From a virus (taxonomy: Duplodnaviria > Heunggongvirae > Uroviricota > Caudoviricetes): a stretch of DNA of 64,000 nt. A program made the position numbers and the translations under genes. Positions 3,256 through 63,984 of this stretch are shown piece after piece (the first letter of the stretch is position 1; each line of letters begins with the position of its first letter). The notes below the pieces were generated by a model. The model ran no database searches. It was not told the DNA's origin and worked only from the letters and a program-made list of their open reading frames with translations. Where the stretch lies: IMG/VR virus record IMGVR_UViG_2839610755_000002; one strand, written 5' to 3'.

Positions 3256-4119
3256 ATGAACAAGCTATCTATGGGGGTGTTTCGCTGTTCAAGTGTCAGC
3301 GAAATATTGAAATACATTAGGGCAATAACATCTCACCGGGCGCCGATTAAATACGGCGTGGAAAAGGTGGAAGGCAAAAGCTATGACCGACTGCGCCGGG
3401 AGGCGAATCAGAAGGCGATAGATTTGCTTAATTCGCTGGTGGACGGCGCGACACTGACAGATGAACAGCGCCAGATCCTGGCTGGGTACACCGGTGAAGG
3501 TGGCATTGGCGGGGCCGTCTCCGAATATTACACACCAAAGCCGATCGCTGAAGGCGTCTGGGAGATCATGAAGCTCTACGGCGCGGACGTAGGTAACACT
3601 CTGGAACCATCGGCGGGAACCGGCGTTTTTAATGAGACAAAACCGGTTGGTACGGTGATGACCGCGACTGAGATCAGCAGTGTTTCCGGTCGTATAAACC
3701 AGTTGTTACACCCGGAAGACAGCGTACAGATTTCCCCGTTCGAACAGCTGGCTATAAGCACGCCTAACGATTCATTCGACCATGTTGTGGGTAACGTTCC
3801 GTTCGGCGGTCGTGATAACACACGCAACATCGATAAGCCTTACGCAGAAGAAACGGACATGGGTTCTTACTTCATGCTCCGCATGCTGGACAAGATAAAG
3901 CCTGGCGGATTCATGTGTGTGATTGTGCCGCCGTCCATTGTTTCAGGTTCAAACATGAAGCGGTTACGCCTGCGCCTATCCCGTAAAGCTGAATTTCTTG
4001 GCGCTCACCGCTTGCCTACCGGTACTTTTGACGCAAACGGGACCAGTACGGTCGTTGATGTGGTGCTGATGCGTAAACATCCGGCAGAGATGGCTGAGAA
4101 AATCCCCCCTGGTGGATGA
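3256..4119 (+). CDS. darB: DarB N-terminal segment (N6-adenine methyltransferase domain), ends at a frameshift
   Basis: MTase motif I-like LEPSAGTGVF and motif IV-like VVGNVPFGG. The ORF stops at 4117-4119 just after a C6 tract while the next frame continues. Confidence 0.75.
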   Translation: MNKLSMGVFRCSSVSEILKYIRAITSHRAPIKYGVEKVEGKSYDRLRREANQKAIDLLNSLVDGATLTDEQRQILAGYTGEGGIGGAVSEYYTPKPIAEGVWEIMKLYGADVGNTLEPSAGTGVFNETKPVGTVMTATEISSVSGRINQLLHPEDSVQISPFEQLAISTPNDSFDHVVGNVPFGGRDNTRNIDKPYAEETDMGSYFMLRMLDKIKPGGFMCVIVPPSIVSGSNMKRLRLRLSRKAEFLGAHRLPTGTFDANGTSTVVDVVLMRKHPAEMAEKIPPGG

Positions 4120-7100
4120 AGGCACTCTTGAATCGGCAAATGTGCTTTGGCCAACGTTTATTTCTGGCAAGTGGTTCGAAAAGGACGGCCGCCGGTTTGT
4201 TCATGGCACCCAGGAGAAGGGTTTCCAGGGGCGTATTGAGGTTCGTGCCGACGGGCAGATTGATAACCTGGCTCTTAAAGCGAAGCTGATTCATCGTTTC
4301 GAAAGTCGTATCGACTGGTCTTTGCTCGATATGGCTGAACCGTCACCGACCGCAGATGTTGTTGATGAAGGGGAAATGCGCCTGATTAATGGCGTATGGC
4401 AAAAATATGCTGGTGGTCGCTGGATTGAAGCTGATGCCGGGAAGGAGCTGAAGATTGATGTTGCCAGTTATGGCGCGGATAGCTGGGAGGCTCTTCAGCG
4501 TAACCTGACTACCACAGAAGGTCGTCTCGGCATGACATTTACCCAGATGGCAAATGTCCGCGATAAGTACACCACATCAATCAGCGACGATATGGTGCAG
4601 CTGGTGGACTGGATTAACAGCCAGCCTGAAAAATACCGTGAACGCTTGTATCGCGGGGCGATGATTGGCCGGATGTTAATTGAATATCAGGATATGAAGG
4701 CCGCCGGGCATAGTGCTGAACAAATCGAACAGCAGCGCCTTTCTCTGGTATCCCGTTTGCAGGCAGAGATTGACCGCTTTGGTAATCCTGGTCGCGGTCC
4801 TATAGCGAAATTGTCGGGGAGCGGTGCGCGCGCCTGGTTTGCTTTCCGTGGTGCGATTAAGCTGGATGGCACTATTTCTGACGAGCTGACAGGAAAGCTG
4901 GTTACGCATGATTCCAGCGCCAGTTATGACTCCACCAGCTATCAGGACATCCTGCGTTATCTCTATAGCGATCTTACCCGCGATCCAATCCAGCTCGATG
5001 ATTTCCGCCTTGCGTTTACCGGCGAACTGCCAGCCAGTGATAAAGAGTTGCTTAATTTATTGGCCAGCACCCCTGGTATTGCGGTTTCACCGTATGGCGG
5101 GATTGTTCCGTTCGCCCGCGCCACCAGCGGCGACATTAACGAGATAGTGGCTCCAAAACAGGAATTCCTCGCCACGCTCCCCGACGGTCCAGTAAAGAAC
5201 AACGTCCTTAATCAGCTGGCAGCGATCGAAGAGAAGCGCATCAAGACGCCAGCAGAGAATATCCGCTTTAAGCTCAATAGCCGTTGGTTCGACCGTTCCG
5301 TCATTCTGGAATTTTTGCAGGAAAACGGCTATCCGGATCTGCGCTATGTGCAGTCAGTGCAGCTGGAAGGCGACGAAATGGTTTCTGACACCTATCACGG
5401 TGGTGATGGTCTGTTCGTCGGACACCGATACGGTGTCGTCCAGCGCAAGGATAAAGAAACAGGCGAGATCCGCTACGAGTGGGACCGTAAATCAGGTGAA
5501 AACGCGACCGGGTTCCCGGCACAGCTGGAAAAGTATCTCAATGGTGCGCGTATCGGTGGCAAAGATAGCGCGACGGCGAACGGCTACCGCGAGCAGATGG
5601 CACTGCTTGAGGACCAGTTCAATAAGTGGCTCAAGACGCACGATCGCTACGATGAGCTGGTTGCCAAATACAACGATGTGTTCAATAGCAATATCCCGTA
5701 TGAACACTCTGGCGATCCGCTTGGGTTGAAGGGATTAAGCGGTAAGCGCCAGCCATTTGATTACCAGAATAGCGAGGTGCGCCGACTGTCCGAAGATGGG
5801 CGCGGCATCCTGGGCTTCGGCACCGGGCTGGGTAAAACGACGACCGCGCTGGCGCTTGAGGCGTTCAACTATGAGAACGGTCGCTCCACCCGTACTGCTT
5901 ATGTAGTGCCTAAAGCAGTGCTGGAAAACTGGTATTACGAAGCAAAAGAGTTCCTGAGTGAAGAGGCATTCAGTAACTACCTGTTCGTCGGTCTTGATGT
6001 GCTGATGGATGGCGATCAGATTCGCCAGGTGCCGGTGCTCGATGAGAACGGTAAACCTGTTCTTGGTACTGATGGCACTCCAGTTATGCGCGATGCTCTT
6101 AAGCTGGCAGATGAAGCCACTATCACGGCGCGGATGAACGCGATCCCGCACTCAAATTACCGTGCAGTCGTGTTTACCAAAGAACAATACGCCCGCATTC
6201 CGCTACGTGATGACACCGTAGATGAGCATGCACAAGACATGCTTTATGACTTCGTTGCTGCCGGGCGTGTGGCCAGCGCAATGGACTCCGATTCCCATCG
6301 CAAAGAGGCGGCGCGTCGCCGGGTATTGTCGGAGTATTCAGATACCGGTACCGAAAAAGCAGAGAAGTATCCGTACTTTGAGGATATGGGCTTCGACAGC
6401 GTGATTGCTGACGAAGGCCACAACTACCGCAATAGCTATAAAAATGGTCGCGAAGCGTCACAACTGGCCTATCTGCCCACCAGCGCGGTGGCGCAATCGG
6501 CGCGGGATATGGCAATCAAAAACGCGTACCTGATGAAAAAGAATGGTGGGCGCGGACCGGTTCTCCTGACTGCAACGCCAGTAGTTAACACCCCGATCGA
6601 TGCATACAACATGCTTTCTCATGTGCTGCCGAAGGAATACTGGCAGAAGATGGGGATCTACGGTCCTGATGACTTCGTTAAATTCTTCGGCAAGACCAGG
6701 CTGGAAACGGTACAGAAAATCAGCGGCGAAGTTGAAGAAAAAATGGCGCTGGTGGGTTTTGAAAACCTTGATGCGCTGCGCGGCATATTCCATCGCTGGA
6801 CAACGCTTAAAACGGCGGAAGACGTTAAGGATACCGTGGAGATCCCGGAACTGGACGAACACCAGCAGGATGCACCACTTACTGAAGAACAACTGGCGGC
6901 GTATGAAGAATTGCGTCAGCAGGCGGAAGCGGCAGCCAAAGCCAACAATGGCGTAACGACCTCGGTCAATGAAGACGGCGTGATTGAGCACGAGAAAGCC
7001 CGTCCGATCTTCTCAATAATCAGGGATATGGACCGCGTATGTACTGACATGGACCTGTACTATCGCCGGATCACCTATCGTTTCCTGCCGGAGTATGCCG

Positions 7101-58154: not shown

Positions 58155-58196
58155 TGAACCGCCCCGGGTTTCCTGGAGAGTGTTTTATCTGTGAAC

Positions 58197-59087
58197 TCAG
58201 GCTGCCAGATCATCGTTTCCGATGGAAGCATAATAAGCTTTTTCTGCTTCTGCCGGAGGAGTATGGCCCAGCCTTCCCAGCAATCGTCGATTGTTATACC
58301 AGTCCACCCACGTTAGTGTGGCCAGTTCCACTTCTGCACGGTTTTTCCAGCTCTTACGGTGTATTACCTCCGCTTTGTAAAGACCATTGATGCTCTCAGC
58401 CATCGCGTTGTCATACGAGTCGCCTGTACTCCCTGTTGATGCCAGTAATCCGGCTTCTTTTAGTCGCTCCGTATAGGCCAGTGACACATACTGAGAGCCT
58501 TTATCGCTGTGATGGATGGTGCCAGACGGACGACGGGCCCACAACGCCTGCTCCAGCGCATCCAGCACGAATGTCGTTTCCATAGACGATGAGACCCGCC
58601 ACCCCACGATGTATCCGGCAAACACATCAATGATAAACGCCACATAGACGAAGCCCTGCCATGTGCTGACGTAAGTAAAATCAGCCACCCACAGCTGGTC
58701 AGGTCGTTCTGCCACGAACTGACGGTTTACGCGGTCGCCTGCGGCAACGGCTTTCCGGCTGATGGTCGTACGGACCTTTTTACCCCGGAGAACACCGGCA
58801 AGTCCCATAACCGCCATGAGACGTGCCACTGTACATCTGGCCACCCTGATTCCTTCCCGTAACAACTGACGCCAGACTTTACGCACACCGTACACCTGAT
58901 GATTTTCATCGTATACGCGCTGTATCTCTCTCTTCAGCCAGTCGTCGTGCTGCGCACGGGCACTGCGTTTATCCGGATGATGTCGCTGTTGCTGACAATG
59001 GTAATACGTTGACGGGGCAATATGCAGTTCGCTGCATACCGGTCCGACCCCGTACTGCTCACGCAGCTTATCCAGCAGTGGCATCAT
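58197..59087 (-). CDS. IS3-family transposase OrfB
   Basis: Identical to the 41784..42674 protein. Confidence 0.85.
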
Positions 59088-59410
59088 TTTTTCCAGAGGC
59101 GGTCGAACTCCGCCTTCGCAAAATAAGCGGAAGCCTGGCGAAGGATATCGTTACTGCGGCGCAGTTCACGATTTTCACGTTCCAGCTCTTTCAGACGCTG
59201 ACGTTCAGCGCTGGTGAGCCCACCATCACCGCCCCCGGTATCCCGCTCATGCTGGCGAACCCAGACACGCAGAGTCTCCGGCGTACAGCCAATCTTTGGG
59301 GCAATGGAACAAATTGCCGCCCACTGTGAGTCATATTCATCCTGACTTTCCAGAACCATACGAATCGCCCGCTGACGGACTTCGGGGGAAAAACGAGTAT
59401 TTTTAGTCAT
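59084..59410 (-). CDS. IS3-family transposase OrfA
   Basis: Identical to the 41461..41787 protein. Confidence 0.85.
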
Positions 59411-59562
59411 CCTGTTTACCTCTTTCTCAGGGAGTTTAGTCTCCAGGATTTCCGGGGCGGTTCAGGCTGTTAAGGAACGTGATAAGTCAATAATGGATCT
59501 TAACCAGACCATTGAGACGATGAACAAAGCAGAGCAACATTTTCACAGCCAGGAAGTGAAAA

Positions 59563-59906: not shown

Positions 59907-60299
59907 ATGTCTGATAAAGTAACAGTAAAGCAAACTATCAACAAAGCGACTTCAATCTACAAAATTGAGCACATCACTGTTGGCAAGCCAGGATCTGAAC
60001 AATACCGTCATGCTTTCGAGCTTGCCGATCAGCTTGGTTTAAAACACCCGGATTGCATCGAGCATGTATTTCCGACCTATGCTGATGAGCAATGTACTCA
60101 TGTTCTTACCGAAGAGGATTTTTTCAGCACTGAAGAACGAGAAGGCGTTGATCGCTGCATTGGTGTGATTTGCTCTTCAGTGAGTTATGAGTTATTCCCT
60201 AATGTCCATGAAAATGGTGGTATTGGATACCAATTCCTGTACGAAGGCGATGAGCTTAAATGTTATGAACATGGTCTTCTTATCGAAAGCGTAGAATAA
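59907..60299 (+). CDS. hypothetical protein
   Basis: 130-aa ORF followed by a stem-loop and the oriR elements. Confidence 0.4.
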   Translation: MSDKVTVKQTINKATSIYKIEHITVGKPGSEQYRHAFELADQLGLKHPDCIEHVFPTYADEQCTHVLTEEDFFSTEEREGVDRCIGVICSSVSYELFPNVHENGGIGYQFLYEGDELKCYEHGLLIESVE

Positions 60300-60412: not shown

Positions 60413-60451
60413 GCTGTAAGCCGCGCCATTTCTGGCCTGAAATGGGATCAA

Positions 60452-60557
60452 CATTGACTATACGCGATTTTATGTTGACTGTGCACGATTTATTGTTGAC
60501 TGCACGCGATTTATTGTTGACTATATGCGACAGAAACATTGACTGTACGCGATTTTA
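60452..60557. repeat. incC: five direct iterons (TTGACTRYRCGCGATTT-like, about 21-bp period) upstream of repA
   Basis: TTGACTATACGCGATT, TTGACTGTGCACGATT, TTGACTGCACGCGATT, TTGACTATATGCGACA, TTGACTGTACGCGATT. Confidence 0.8.
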
Positions 60558-60632
60558 GAGCCTGACTATTCACAGTTGTTGATAACTGCAATCCAGATGA
60601 CGCCAGGCCGCGCCACATATGGAGAAACCACG

Positions 60633-61517
60633 ATGCTGGAAGAAAATAAAGGCTTCCTTAGCGTTGAAGAAGTTGCAGGAAATACAGGAGAAATCCACAG
60701 CCTGAAACCCAATAACAATAGCACTATACAACCCATTGCTTTGTTGCGCTTAGGTGTGTTTGTGCCAACCTTAAAATCTACCAATGTGGCACTACGTCGC
60801 GGATCGTCAGTTACTACAAACACAACGAACGCAACCGAAGAACTATCAAGCCTCAAAATTGTTGAGCAGGAAGGCTATGAGGGAATTGAAATTCATGGTC
60901 CACGCCTGGATATGGATACTGATTTTAAGGTGTGGGTGGGCATAACCTCCGCGTTGTTTGACTACGCACCTGATGATGACGGCATAATCACCCTGCCATT
61001 CTCCGAGTTTGCCGATCGATGCGGCTATCCACGTAAGCGCCTTTCAAAGGCGTTCCGTAAAAGTATTGATGACTCTCTGACACGCATTCAGCAGACAGTT
61101 GTCAAATTCCGCTTCCCGGCGGCAAAAGGTCATCTCAATAACATTAACGTCAACTTGTTGGCATATAGCAGCCTGAATACCGAGCTTGATGTTATCGAGA
61201 TCCAGCCGCAGAAACAGCTATCTGAACTTTACTATGTTGACTATAAGCGAATCCTGAAGCTGAAGATGCTGGATAAGCTCGGGCGCAAAGAGACGGCCAA
61301 GGTACTGTATACATTCTTTGAGGCTCTACCCGCCAACCCGGCACCTGTCAGCATTGAGCGCCTTAGAGCAAGGCTTAATCTCAAATCATCCGTTAGCGTG
61401 CAAAATAGCGTTATCAGAAAAGCCATGAAAGATTTGGAAGCTATTGAATATCTTAAATTTTCAGAGATAAAAAACGGCAGGAAAATCGGCTTTCAGATCC
61501 ATAAGCGCAATCCATAA
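60633..61517 (+). CDS. repA: RepA plasmid replication initiator (P1 R-replicon type)
   Basis: Start MLEENKGF after GGAGA; TIQPIALLRLGVFVP, GPRLDMDTDFKVW and LYTFFEALPANPAPVSIERLRARLNLKS resemble recalled P1 RepA. Confidence 0.85.
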   Translation: MLEENKGFLSVEEVAGNTGEIHSLKPNNNSTIQPIALLRLGVFVPTLKSTNVALRRGSSVTTNTTNATEELSSLKIVEQEGYEGIEIHGPRLDMDTDFKVWVGITSALFDYAPDDDGIITLPFSEFADRCGYPRKRLSKAFRKSIDDSLTRIQQTVVKFRFPAAKGHLNNINVNLLAYSSLNTELDVIEIQPQKQLSELYYVDYKRILKLKMLDKLGRKETAKVLYTFFEALPANPAPVSIERLRARLNLKSSVSVQNSVIRKAMKDLEAIEYLKFSEIKNGRKIGFQIHKRNP

Positions 61518-61776
61518 TATTGACTATATGCGATAGCGAGAAGTTGACTATAGGCGACATTCGTTGACGCTGGTGGATTTTTGCTGGCGTCAATATTCTG
61601 CAAGTCGCTATTGAGATGGCTTTTAGGGTCATTTCATCGCGTATAGTCAACGTTTCTCCCGACAATATCTTACATAGTCGATCTTTGGTGGAGTTAAATC
61701 GACTACAGTCAACTTTTGACTGTAGTCACATCGCGCATAGTCAACTATTCACATTAACTTTCGCGCATAGTCAACA
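61518..61776. repeat. incA: about 8-9 iterons in both orientations downstream of repA
   Basis: Repeated TTGACTATATGCGAT / ATCGCGCATAGTCAA-type units. Confidence 0.75.
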
Positions 61777-61809
61777 TTTGCGCGGTTCTCATCAAGCAGT
61801 GGTATTGAT

Positions 61810-62145
61810 ATGCAAGAAGAGAAACAACACTACCTCTACGTTCTGGTGCCGGAGAACGGAGATACTTTTAAAATCGGCATTTCATGTGGTCCATTGGCAC
61901 GGTTTAAAGGGCTACAAGTGAGTCCCGATTTTGCGCTTTCACGGGTCTATCGTGGTACGCGTTTGGCAATGGTTAATCTTGAGCGGGCTTTACACGCAAC
62001 CTTTTTCCCCTGGAATGCGCCGTGGGAGAAAAGCGCCGGTGGCGGGCATACTGAATGGTTTACACGAGAGTGTCTTGATAAGGTTTTGGCTCATATCGAA
62101 TATCTAAATGATATGTGGGGAGGGATTCTCGAGCGCATTAAGTAG
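61810..62145 (+). CDS. T5orf172/GIY-YIG-like small protein
   Basis: YLYVLVPENGDTFKIGIS and GGGHTEWF resemble the T5orf172 domain pattern (recalled). Confidence 0.4.
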   Translation: MQEEKQHYLYVLVPENGDTFKIGISCGPLARFKGLQVSPDFALSRVYRGTRLAMVNLERALHATFFPWNAPWEKSAGGGHTEWFTRECLDKVLAHIEYLNDMWGGILERIK

Positions 62146-62214
62146 AATGATTTACTTCAGCGTCCAGTAGATGCTGCTCGCTCTTTCGAAAAAGAACTGG
62201 ATGTTACTTCTATC

Positions 62215-62619
62215 GTGACTTTCAAAGATGACGCAGGAATGAGGGACGTGGCTTATGTCTCCATATCTGGCTATGAACCGGACGCGATCCGCGCTCAATG
62301 TGAATTGCTGAAAGCAATGTTTATGCTTCGGACTAAATATCCCTGGGAGACAGGGCGGGTGTGCTTCCCTATGGAAGAGTTAACCGCCACCATTGATTCT
62401 CAGCTTTACCACGATAATCCAGAGAAGTTTTTTAGCCTTTTAGCCGGTAATGGGCTTAACTGTGTGTCCGGGCTGGGGCGAAGTAGAATCCAACATGCCT
62501 CGCTCTTCGGTCCCTTCTTTTACGATCGACACGGGTACTTTGAGGCTGAACTTCCGGCGCTTACGCGTGCTATAGATACTATCGATTTCGAACGATTATT
62601 CGCTGCTCTTAGCAAATAA
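62215..62619 (+). CDS. hypothetical protein
   Basis: 134-aa ORF followed by a clear intrinsic terminator. Confidence 0.4.
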   Translation: MTFKDDAGMRDVAYVSISGYEPDAIRAQCELLKAMFMLRTKYPWETGRVCFPMEELTATIDSQLYHDNPEKFFSLLAGNGLNCVSGLGRSRIQHASLFGPFFYDRHGYFEAELPALTRAIDTIDFERLFAALSK

Positions 62620-62626
62620 CACTGAT

Positions 62627-62648
62627 GCCCCTGAACGGGGCTTTTTTG
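62627..62648 (+). terminator. intrinsic terminator GCCCC-tgaac-GGGGC then TTTTTTG
   Basis: GC stem with T-run directly after the 62215..62619 stop. Confidence 0.6.
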
Positions 62649-62735
62649 TGCCTTTCTTGTAACTCTCAATCGTGCAAAATGAACAAAACATGCAGAGAAT
62701 GCCATGTACAAGCATCTACGCATACATTATTATTT

Positions 62736-62787: not shown

Positions 62788-63984
62788 ATGAGTGATTCCA
62801 GCCAGCTTCACAAGGTTGCTCAAAGAGCAAACAGAATGCTCAATGTTCTGACTGAACAAGTACAGTTGCAAAAGGATGAGCTACACGCGAACGAGTTTTA
62901 CCAGGTCTATGCGAAAGCGGCACTGGCAAAATTGCCTCTACTGACTCGAGCGAACGTTGACTATGCCGTAAGTGAAATGGAAGAAAAGGGTTATGTTTTC
63001 GATAAACGCCCTGCTGGCTCTTCAATGAAATATGCGATGTCAATTCAGAACATCATTGACATATATGAACATCGCGGAGTGCCAAAATACCGGGATCGCT
63101 ACAGCGAAGCGTATGTGATTTTCATCTCCAATCTTAAAGGCGGTGTGTCAAAAACTGTATCGACGGTTTCTCTGGCGCATGCAATGCGTGCTCACCCTCA
63201 TCTTCTGATGGAAGATTTAAGGATTCTGGTTATTGACCTTGATCCGCAATCTTCAGCAACGATGTTTTTAAGCCATAAACACTCTATTGGTATCGTAAAC
63301 GCAACATCTGCACAGGCTATGTTGCAGAATGTAAGCCGTGAAGAGCTGTTAGAGGAGTTTATTGTTCCTTCTGTTGTACCTGGGGTTGACGTTATGCCTG
63401 CGTCGATTGACGATGCCTTTATTGCATCCGATTGGAGAGAGCTGTGCAATGAGCATCTACCGGGTCAGAACATCCATGCTGTCCTGAAAGAAAATGTGAT
63501 TGATAAGCTGAAGAGCGATTATGACTTTATCCTCGTTGATAGTGGTCCTCACCTTGACGCCTTCCTGAAAAATGCTTTGGCCTCGGCCAATATACTGTTT
63601 ACACCTCTGCCGCCAGCAACTGTCGATTTCCACTCATCGCTTAAATACGTTGCCCGCCTTCCTGAGTTGGTGAAACTCATTTCGGATGAAGGCTGCGAGT
63701 GCCAGCTTGCGACTAACATTGGTTTTATGTCCAAGTTGAGTAACAAGGCAGATCATAAGTATTGCCATAGCCTGGCTAAAGAAGTGTTCGGTGGGGATAT
63801 GCTCGATGTCGTCCTCCCTCGCCTTGACGGTTTTGAACGTTGCGGCGAGTCTTTTGACACTGTTATTTCAGCTAACCCGGCAACGTATGTTGGTAGTGCT
63901 GATGCATTGAAGAACGCGCGAATTGCCGCGGAAGATTTTGCTAAAGCAGTTTTTGACCGTATTGAATTTATCAGATCTAACTGA
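62788..63984 (+). CDS. parA: ParA partition ATPase
   Basis: 398 aa with deviant Walker A ISNLKGGVSKTVSTVSLAH; size and position match P1 ParA (recalled). Confidence 0.88.
   Translation: MSDSSQLHKVAQRANRMLNVLTEQVQLQKDELHANEFYQVYAKAALAKLPLLTRANVDYAVSEMEEKGYVFDKRPAGSSMKYAMSIQNIIDIYEHRGVPKYRDRYSEAYVIFISNLKGGVSKTVSTVSLAHAMRAHPHLLMEDLRILVIDLDPQSSATMFLSHKHSIGIVNATSAQAMLQNVSREELLEEFIVPSVVPGVDVMPASIDDAFIASDWRELCNEHLPGQNIHAVLKENVIDKLKSDYDFILVDSGPHLDAFLKNALASANILFTPLPPATVDFHSSLKYVARLPELVKLISDEGCECQLATNIGFMSKLSNKADHKYCHSLAKEVFGGDMLDVVLPRLDGFERCGESFDTVISANPATYVGSADALKNARIAAEDFAKAVFDRIEFIRSN

Follow-up and report, generated by a model that had tools for sequence, protein, structure and literature searches.

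The window, a stretch of 64,000 nucleotides from an IMG/VR virus record, carries between its replication and partition genes a reading frame of 269 codons plus a stop (810 nt), which we call gene X here (Table 1). The array of incA-type iterons that follows repA ends 30 bp 5′ of the gene X ATG, and an intrinsic terminator closes the transcription unit 5′ of the par promoter; parA starts at 62788. The origin array (60454-60565) is made of the same repeat as the incA iterons (GTTGACTATRCGCGAT). The 111-codon ORF from which the first-pass annotation started (61810-62145, + strand, ATG start) is a real ORF within the window and does lie directly after the incA iterons, as had been claimed. Elsewhere in this region, the homologue of P1 upfA is a 130-aa ORF 5′ of the origin iterons (59907-60299, + strand; phrog_1453, E=2e-61, no Pfam match), and a chance ORF runs across the iterons at 61616-61921.

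Table 1. Features of gene X and the surrounding replicon module (window coordinates).
Feature	Position	Strand	Basis or remark
Replicon module differing from canonical P1 (origin iterons, repA, incA iterons, gene X, terminator)	60437..62685	.	blastn against the P1 locus (L004)
repA, p0111 type (Rep3/RepB family), 41% identical to P1 IncY RepA	60633..61517	+	Pfam Rep3_N and Rep3_C; RefSeq CDS coordinates in L001 and L008; BLASTP
incA-type iteron array, consensus GTTGACTATRCGCGAT, both orientations	61515..61779	.	repeat families D1, D3 and D4; pattern scan
Gene X, full frame, amber-interrupted at codon 112	61810..62619	+	one-frame translation; halves of phrog_2876; intact in L001, L002 and L056
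Codons 1-111, T5orf172 (GIY-YIG superfamily) nuclease domain	61810..62142	+	family-invariant residues all present
Amber TAG in place of Ser112 TCG	62143..62145	+	comparison with L001, L002 and L056
Codons 113-269 and stop: linker and winged-helix-like domain (presumed DNA-binding/specificity)	62146..62619	+	now 3′ of the amber stop
134-aa GTG-start ORF	62215-62619	+	within codons 113-269 of gene X
126-aa CDS from ATG at 62239	inside 62146..62619	+	called by PGAP
Intrinsic terminator GCCCC-TGAAC-GGGGC: 5-bp all-GC stem, 5-nt loop, TTTTTTGT tail	62627..62650	+	terminator scan

The 111-aa ORF had been described as a small protein that forms a cassette with the following 134-aa ORF and a strong terminator. 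The terminator is there, but the two ORFs are not separate genes: they share one frame and one PHROG profile, and they have intact homologues. On translation both proved to be in frame 1 with a single TAG between them, and this TAG is codon 112 when 61810-62619 is translated in one frame. The earliest hint of a split gene came from the PHROG search, in which the 111-aa ORF matched positions 1-111 (E=1e-79) and the 134-aa ORF positions 136-269 of the 269-position profile phrog_2876. In the phages RCS47 and Ro157c2YLVW the same 810 nt form an unbroken 269-codon CDS, annotated ‘GIY-YIG nuclease family protein’, with TCG at codon 112, and the CDS is intact in all three of the reference loci L001, L002 and L056. 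Codon-by-codon comparison with the first two of these placed a C to A transversion at 62144, which turns Ser112 (TCG) into the amber codon. The third, plasmid NZ_CP173116 of E. coli STEC799, differs from the window gene at gene nucleotide 335 only, where it has C and the window has A. RefSeq WP_001154684.1, RCS47 gp090 and JL22 gp57 are the same gene (99-99.9% nucleotide identity), from which the window allele differs by the change of Ser112 to amber. The ORFs do not lie in different frames, and the intact homologues have neither a conserved stop nor a restart, either of which would have spoken against a single gene. The segment 61810-62619 is a single gene broken by a one-nucleotide nonsense mutation, and the window allele is a pseudogene, or truncated allele, of the p0111-type ‘GIY-YIG nuclease family protein’ gene.

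Gene X is common, and the broken form is a minority. PLSDB lists it in 401 records, and among 5426 complete E. coli genomes 412 carry it, with 414 plasmid and 7 chromosomal sites; its carriers are P1-like phage-plasmids with a p0111 replicon, about 400 in number. Among 60 records drawn evenly from the 412, the gene was intact in 53, amber-interrupted in four, frameshifted in one and partial in two, so that about 90% of the homologous copies are one 269-aa CDS. An amber allele 100% identical to that of the window occurs in about 27 of the 5426 genomes, in all of which it is annotated as two CDSs, and in five IMG/VR contigs. Its hosts are P1-like plasmids of STEC serotypes O111:H-/H8 (including pO111_2 of strain 11128), O157:H7 and O103:H2. 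A sequencing error as the source of the TAG was ruled out by the presence of the identical allele in about 27 independently assembled complete genomes of several serotypes. Since all amber copies are 100% identical, the split is recent, and the amber allele is a young clonal allele that marks a pO111_2-like STEC lineage. It is not the only lesion: at least five independent inactivations of gene X were seen, comprising stops at codon 68 (IMG/VR contig L046), codon 112 and codon 228 (Salmonella phage SJ46, L027), a disruption after about residue 100 (IMG/VR contig L049), and frameshifts (phage vB_EcoM-673R5, L003, and NZ_CP123964).

On pO111_2 itself (L008, NC_013370), PGAP gives two ordinary CDSs (6001-6336 and 6430-6810) and makes no pseudogene call. 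Their products are WP_001154680.1 (‘GIY-YIG nuclease family protein’, 111 aa) and WP_001448561.1 (‘hypothetical protein’, 126 aa), as in about 27 other RefSeq plasmids. The window also carries an IS3-family insertion sequence of about 1.3 kb (58157-59461, - strand; orfA 59084-59410, orfB 58197-59087; NCBIfam IS3 transposase, E=3e-94). This element is missing from pO111_2 and interrupts a ppfA homologue (at L008 3653-3660, inside CDS 3498-3920); the window thus comes from a pO111_2-like plasmid and not from pO111_2 itself.

What could still be made from the amber allele? At most, an untargeted 111-aa nuclease domain. No Shine-Dalgarno sequence was found before the start codons downstream of the amber codon, and the window allele is therefore most likely a loss-of-function allele; efficient translation of the C-terminal domain would not be expected. 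In the structural model the amber codon sits at the domain boundary that the low-confidence linker marks. The window copy is most likely a recent loss-of-function variant within a pO111_2-like STEC plasmid lineage.

That the locus holds two small genes after all, a stand-alone 111-aa T5orf172 protein and a 134-aa partner in an accessory or anti-defence cassette, is very improbable. PGAP does annotate the amber allele of pO111_2 as two CDSs, the allele persists in several STEC serotypes, and stand-alone T5orf172 proteins of about 100-130 aa do occur in phages (ranks 1-3 in a structure-library search). Set against this are the shared frame with a single TAG between the ORFs, the predominance of the undivided 269-aa CDS among homologous copies with an intact allele one base away, the complete identity and hence recent origin of the amber copies, and the lack of a Shine-Dalgarno sequence at the downstream starts. 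In addition, neither the intact protein nor its two fragments matched any defence family of PADLOC-DB v2 at E<=1. As the ancestral organisation, the two-gene layout is already refuted, though the truncated 111-aa domain might conceivably retain a function of its own.

The first-pass annotation had also read a GIY-YIG-like N-terminus and a T5orf172-type GGGHTEWF segment in the 111-aa ORF. The ORF contains YLYVLVPENGDTFKIGIS at aa 8-25 and GGGHTEWF at aa 77-84, and the reading held up in the Pfam and PHROG profile matches and in the predicted fold. In the profile search against T5orf172 that had been suggested as a check, run here with Pfam, aa 8-86 of the ORF matched PF10544 over profile positions 2-88 of 101 with 30.3 bits (E=6e-7), compared with a gathering score of 20; the intact gene X protein scored 27.5 bits. 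The core motifs of the family (the first-strand Tyr in Y-x-Y, the second-strand K/Y-I-G, the Arg, and the Glu of T-E-W-F) are all present in the window ORF. Across 17 homologues of 20-44% identity the residues Y10, K21, G23, R31, E58, H62 and E82-W83-F84 are invariant, and the window has every one of them. The modelled N-terminal domain has a GIY-YIG-type fold and, in a viral structure library, matched T5orf172 proteins that include homing endonucleases with CapR homology. Other collections gave little: a PDB sequence search with the family profile found only the GIY-YIG protein 1ywl, which was non-significant (E=0.14), and NCBIfam gave no matches for the intact protein or either fragment. In the T5orf172 nuclease Odn, the Glu was shown to be catalytic with the substitution E180A (PMC8263062). 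By motif position, rather than by direct alignment, E82 would be the equivalent of Odn E180 and of I-TevI E75. The gene X protein thus belongs to the T5orf172 family by the tests applied, with DNA cleavage as its predicted activity.

An AlphaFold2 model of the intact protein, built from a four-sequence alignment (pLDDT 73), showed two domains joined by a linker (residues 115-127) with pLDDT <50. Modelled alone, the C-terminal domain reached a pLDDT of 77.7 and a pTM of 0.75. This domain (residues 128-269) is predicted to be winged-helix-like and is known only from the gene X family. Pfam found nothing in the C-terminal 159 aa (residues 111-269) at E<=10, and neither CapR, DUF723 or DUF4397 zinc-finger modules (Pfam, E<=10) nor a CxxC motif (motif check) was present. 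The longest structural alignments of the domain were to the plasmid initiators MSBI1.176 Rep, RepE, pPS10 RepA and RctB, over their iteron-binding WH1 domains. A borrowed initiator domain in the style of Odn was rejected at the sequence level, as profile-profile comparison (hhalign) with five P1-like RepA proteins gave a probability of 0.3%. The structural scores support a winged-helix DNA-binding fold and not homology to initiators, and the domain is presumed to bind DNA and to confer specificity.

Gene X is part of a replicon module that distinguishes the window from canonical P1. By blastn, identity between the two is 94.5% on the left (up to 60436) and 99.4% on the right (from 62686), with a middle that is unrelated at the nucleotide level; gene X ends 67 bp before the right boundary of this module. 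Canonical P1 (NC_005856) has no CDS between incA and parA, where the spacer is about 270 bp, and searches of this spacer for a remnant of gene X (tblastn with word size 2, blastn-short) returned only noise and iteron matches. The possibility that the ORF is a conserved P1 backbone gene, raised beforehand as a potential refutation, did not apply, P1 having no orthologue at that place. A comparison of the incA-parA spacer across P1-like plasmids, likewise proposed, found P1 without gene X and orthologues in three other lineages.

In a promoter scan, the interval from incA to the gene X ATG had no sigma-70-like site on the + strand (a TTGACT at 61716 has ill-fitting spacers), and no terminator was detected between repA and gene X. 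With no promoter before gene X and no terminator after repA, co-transcription with repA is plausible, and we assume from these signals that gene X would be expressed by read-through from repA. The two genes also occur together: in PLSDB, gene X (401 records) and p0111 repA (399 records) mark practically the same set of plasmids, a ratio of about 1:1. Gene X is a fixed passenger of the iterons-repA-incA-X-terminator module of p0111-type P1-like phage-plasmids. The earlier suggestion of accessory or anti-defence cargo wedged between two modules fits this poorly, given the near 1:1 ratio with p0111 repA, the same slot in other lineages, the movement of the gene together with repA and the iterons, and the negative PADLOC result.

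The wider family was assembled with phmmer over 1.84 billion representatives and a profile search over 5.8 billion proteins. At full length these searches yielded only four lineages: the window type and those of the proteins P0004, P0010 and P0011 (44%, 28% and 25% identical to it, respectively). Each of the latter three lies between a Rep3-family repA and parA (loci L005, L006 and L007), on contigs that keep the P1 order dmt-rdgC-upfC-upfB-ppfA-...-repA-X-parA-parB-gene 23. The GTDB species representatives contained one full-length copy of gene X, IMG/VR held only the E. coli type, and the P0010 type was not found in PLSDB. The database sequence of P0004 (311 aa) begins 41 codons before the true start (L005 6001-6123). 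Its N-terminal extension is read-through of incA iterons, and its real start aligns with the window ATG (‘MENDKKYYLY...’).

The P0010 gene (293 aa) is between incA and parA on L006 (4813-6882), a Logan contig from SRR6505940 whose protein is named as Salmonella enterica in NCBI. The RepA of this contig is 83% identical to canonical P1 IncY RepA, yet the gene X orthologue is present. Gene X beside an IncY-like RepA shows that the gene does not go with a single type of initiator, and its absence from P1 most likely reflects loss in that lineage.

The same contig and L005 provide a second case of module exchange. Their flanks are 96-99% identical and the whole iteron-repA-incA-X module is swapped (L005 4831-7019, L006 4656-6944); within it the RepA proteins are 41% and the gene X proteins 28% identical. 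The breakpoints are common to this pair and to the window and P1: one is in oriR just before the iterons, and the other is 63-84 bp after the gene X stop. In both swaps, which are independent, gene X sits at the right-hand end of the module that was exchanged.

More distant relatives share only the N-terminal T5orf172 subtype. These proteins have about 270-330 aa and unrelated C-termini (L053, L054, L055), and they occur in diverse accessory parts of mobile elements, beside WYL/WCX and Mrr_cat genes (L053), relaxase/TrbM and umuDC-like genes, or toxin-antitoxin-like genes (L055). The remote N-domain relatives P0012, P0013 and P0018 showed no association with replication genes; the link to the replicon is thus specific to the P1-like family.

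Segregating variants of gene X, repA and parA were tallied over one common set of 42 IMG/VR loci. Gene X had 31 synonymous, 34 non-synonymous and three nonsense variants (pN/pS 0.32), compared with 48, three and none in repA (pN/pS 0.02) and 72, one and none in parA (pN/pS 0.00). The gene X ratio was alike in both domains. The window and L005 share one iteron consensus, and their RepA and ParA proteins are 84% and 89% identical, but their gene X proteins only 44%; gene X therefore does not track its own iterons. The high pN/pS, the repeated loss and the existence of P1 without the gene together indicate that gene X is dispensable and fast-evolving. It is functional but weakly constrained.

These data bear directly on the idea that gene X is an accessory factor serving replication or copy number in the p0111 replicon, namely a DNA binder, possibly catalytically domesticated like CapR, that would act on its own iterons or on the par promoter. 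Such a role would fit the 1:1 occurrence with repA, the position right after incA that is conserved in four lineages, the possible co-transcription, and the resemblance of the modelled C-terminal fold to initiator WH1 domains; domesticated T5orf172 regulators, such as CapR, are known. We nevertheless regard it as unlikely. The nuclease-motif residues are invariant across the family, which would not be expected of a pure DNA binder, and gene X has diverged to 44% identity where the iterons are the same and RepA is 84% identical. Furthermore, its pN/pS is at least 16-fold above those of repA and parA, it has been inactivated repeatedly in plasmids that are still maintained, and P1 manages without it.

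Fast evolution and frequent loss are also typical of defence genes, and the accessory regions around remote N-domain relatives abound in defence or toxin-antitoxin genes (L053, L055). Gene X might on these grounds be an anti-phage, anti-plasmid or abortive-infection nuclease that serves the host or superinfection exclusion and has no part in replicon exchange. This, too, is improbable: no PADLOC model matches, the gene stands alone with neither sensor nor partner, and its strict position inside the replicon module, instead of in the known variable regions of P1-like elements, would be unusual for defence cargo.

What, then, does the intact gene do? Its architecture, and the analogy with the homing endonucleases of phage ICP1 and with Odn, make sequence-directed cutting of DNA the most likely activity of the intact protein. 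Overall, gene X is probably a replicon-linked and dispensable gene for a sequence-directed endonuclease similar in kind to homing endonucleases and Odn, and its copy in the window is truncated. Targeting would fall to the winged-helix domain and cleavage to the T5orf172 domain. The intact gene may then act when co-resident P1-like elements conflict or recombine: a cut in a rival that lacks gene X or has a different replicon module, for instance, would be repaired in a way that brings in or favours the X-linked replicon. It would not be needed for plasmid maintenance or phage spread. A more specific version is conceivable, though on balance doubtful: gene X would be a replicon-linked selfish endonuclease whose fast-evolving winged-helix domain is aimed at rivals of the other replicon type or without X, and whose cut eliminates the rival or drives gene conversion of the whole iteron-repA-incA-X module.

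Several observations run counter to these readings. The C-terminal domain lacks the zinc-finger modules typical of T5orf172 homing endonucleases and resembles none of the five RepA proteins in sequence, no promoter was seen directly before the gene, and gene X is essentially always present within the p0111 type, unlike a recently invading homing endonuclease gene. The overall presence/absence pattern is mixed: the gene is missing from P1, where the flanks are 94-99% identical, present with an IncY-like RepA in L006, and about 1:1 with repA in the p0111 type. Its place at the module edge matches the pattern reported for T5orf172 homing endonuclease genes (PMC10448857).

RefSeq and phage records already label gene X as a GIY-YIG or T5orf172 protein. 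We found no characterisation of it in the literature, where one paper mentions it as an unknown gene. The closest characterised systems are instructive in both their likenesses and their differences. The T5orf172-family homing endonucleases of phages, of the ICP1 Gp53/Gp121/Gp130 type (Barth et al. 2023, PMC10448857), have a nuclease domain at one terminus and a DNA-binding region across a linker, as predicted for gene X. They too are encoded by free-standing intergenic genes beside essential genes, at the boundary of exchanged tracts, and they too evolve fast and decay frequently. They differ in that their binding part consists of CapR/DUF723/DUF4397 zinc-finger repeats, whereas gene X has a single winged-helix-like domain. 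Gene X also has its nuclease domain at the N-terminus and is carried by a temperate phage-plasmid, and it is essentially fixed within the p0111 type while the ICP1-type genes are sporadic; homing and cleavage by gene X are putative.

Odn (ICP1 Gp88), an origin-directed T5orf172 nuclease (Barth et al. 2021, PMC8263062), is likewise a fusion of this nuclease domain to a DNA-binding domain, in a setting of replicons and iterons. The domain order differs, and the binding domain of Odn is recognisably homologous to the RepA of its target, whereas that of gene X has no sequence relation to P1-like RepA (the hhalign comparison above). With I-TevI and the free-standing Seg and Mob enzymes of T4, gene X shares an N-terminal catalytic domain of the GIY-YIG superfamily, a flexible linker and a C-terminal DNA-binding domain, a layout in which truncation at the linker would part catalysis from targeting. 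The subfamilies are different, with K-I-G as the second motif of T5orf172 and Y-I-G in those enzymes; the DNA-binding modules are unrelated, and gene X is not in an intron. Gene X is a putative T5orf172 nuclease that is unusual both in its winged-helix partner domain and in residing within a plasmid replicon module.

The result for the window itself is ordinary, a known and annotated gene with a nonsense mutation, and the idea of a replicon-linked nuclease is the part worth testing. In practical terms, a single pseudogene should replace the two entries now given for pO111_2-type plasmids, the ‘111-aa GIY-YIG protein’ and the neighbouring ‘hypothetical protein’. The amber allele offers a clean lineage marker, and natural knock-outs of gene X exist for functional tests. 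Enterobacteriaceae commonly harbour P1-like phage-plasmids, which bring ESBL and mcr genes with them and are typed by their two replicon types, IncY and p0111. A putative nuclease gene in the p0111 module, at the exact edge of the exchanged segment, is an obvious candidate for a driver of replicon replacement, or of exclusion among related phage-plasmids. If this is true, gene X would be an agent of the IncY/p0111 replicon swaps and a nuclease-based layer of plasmid incompatibility, and the logic of homing endonucleases and Odn would extend from lytic phages to plasmid replicons.
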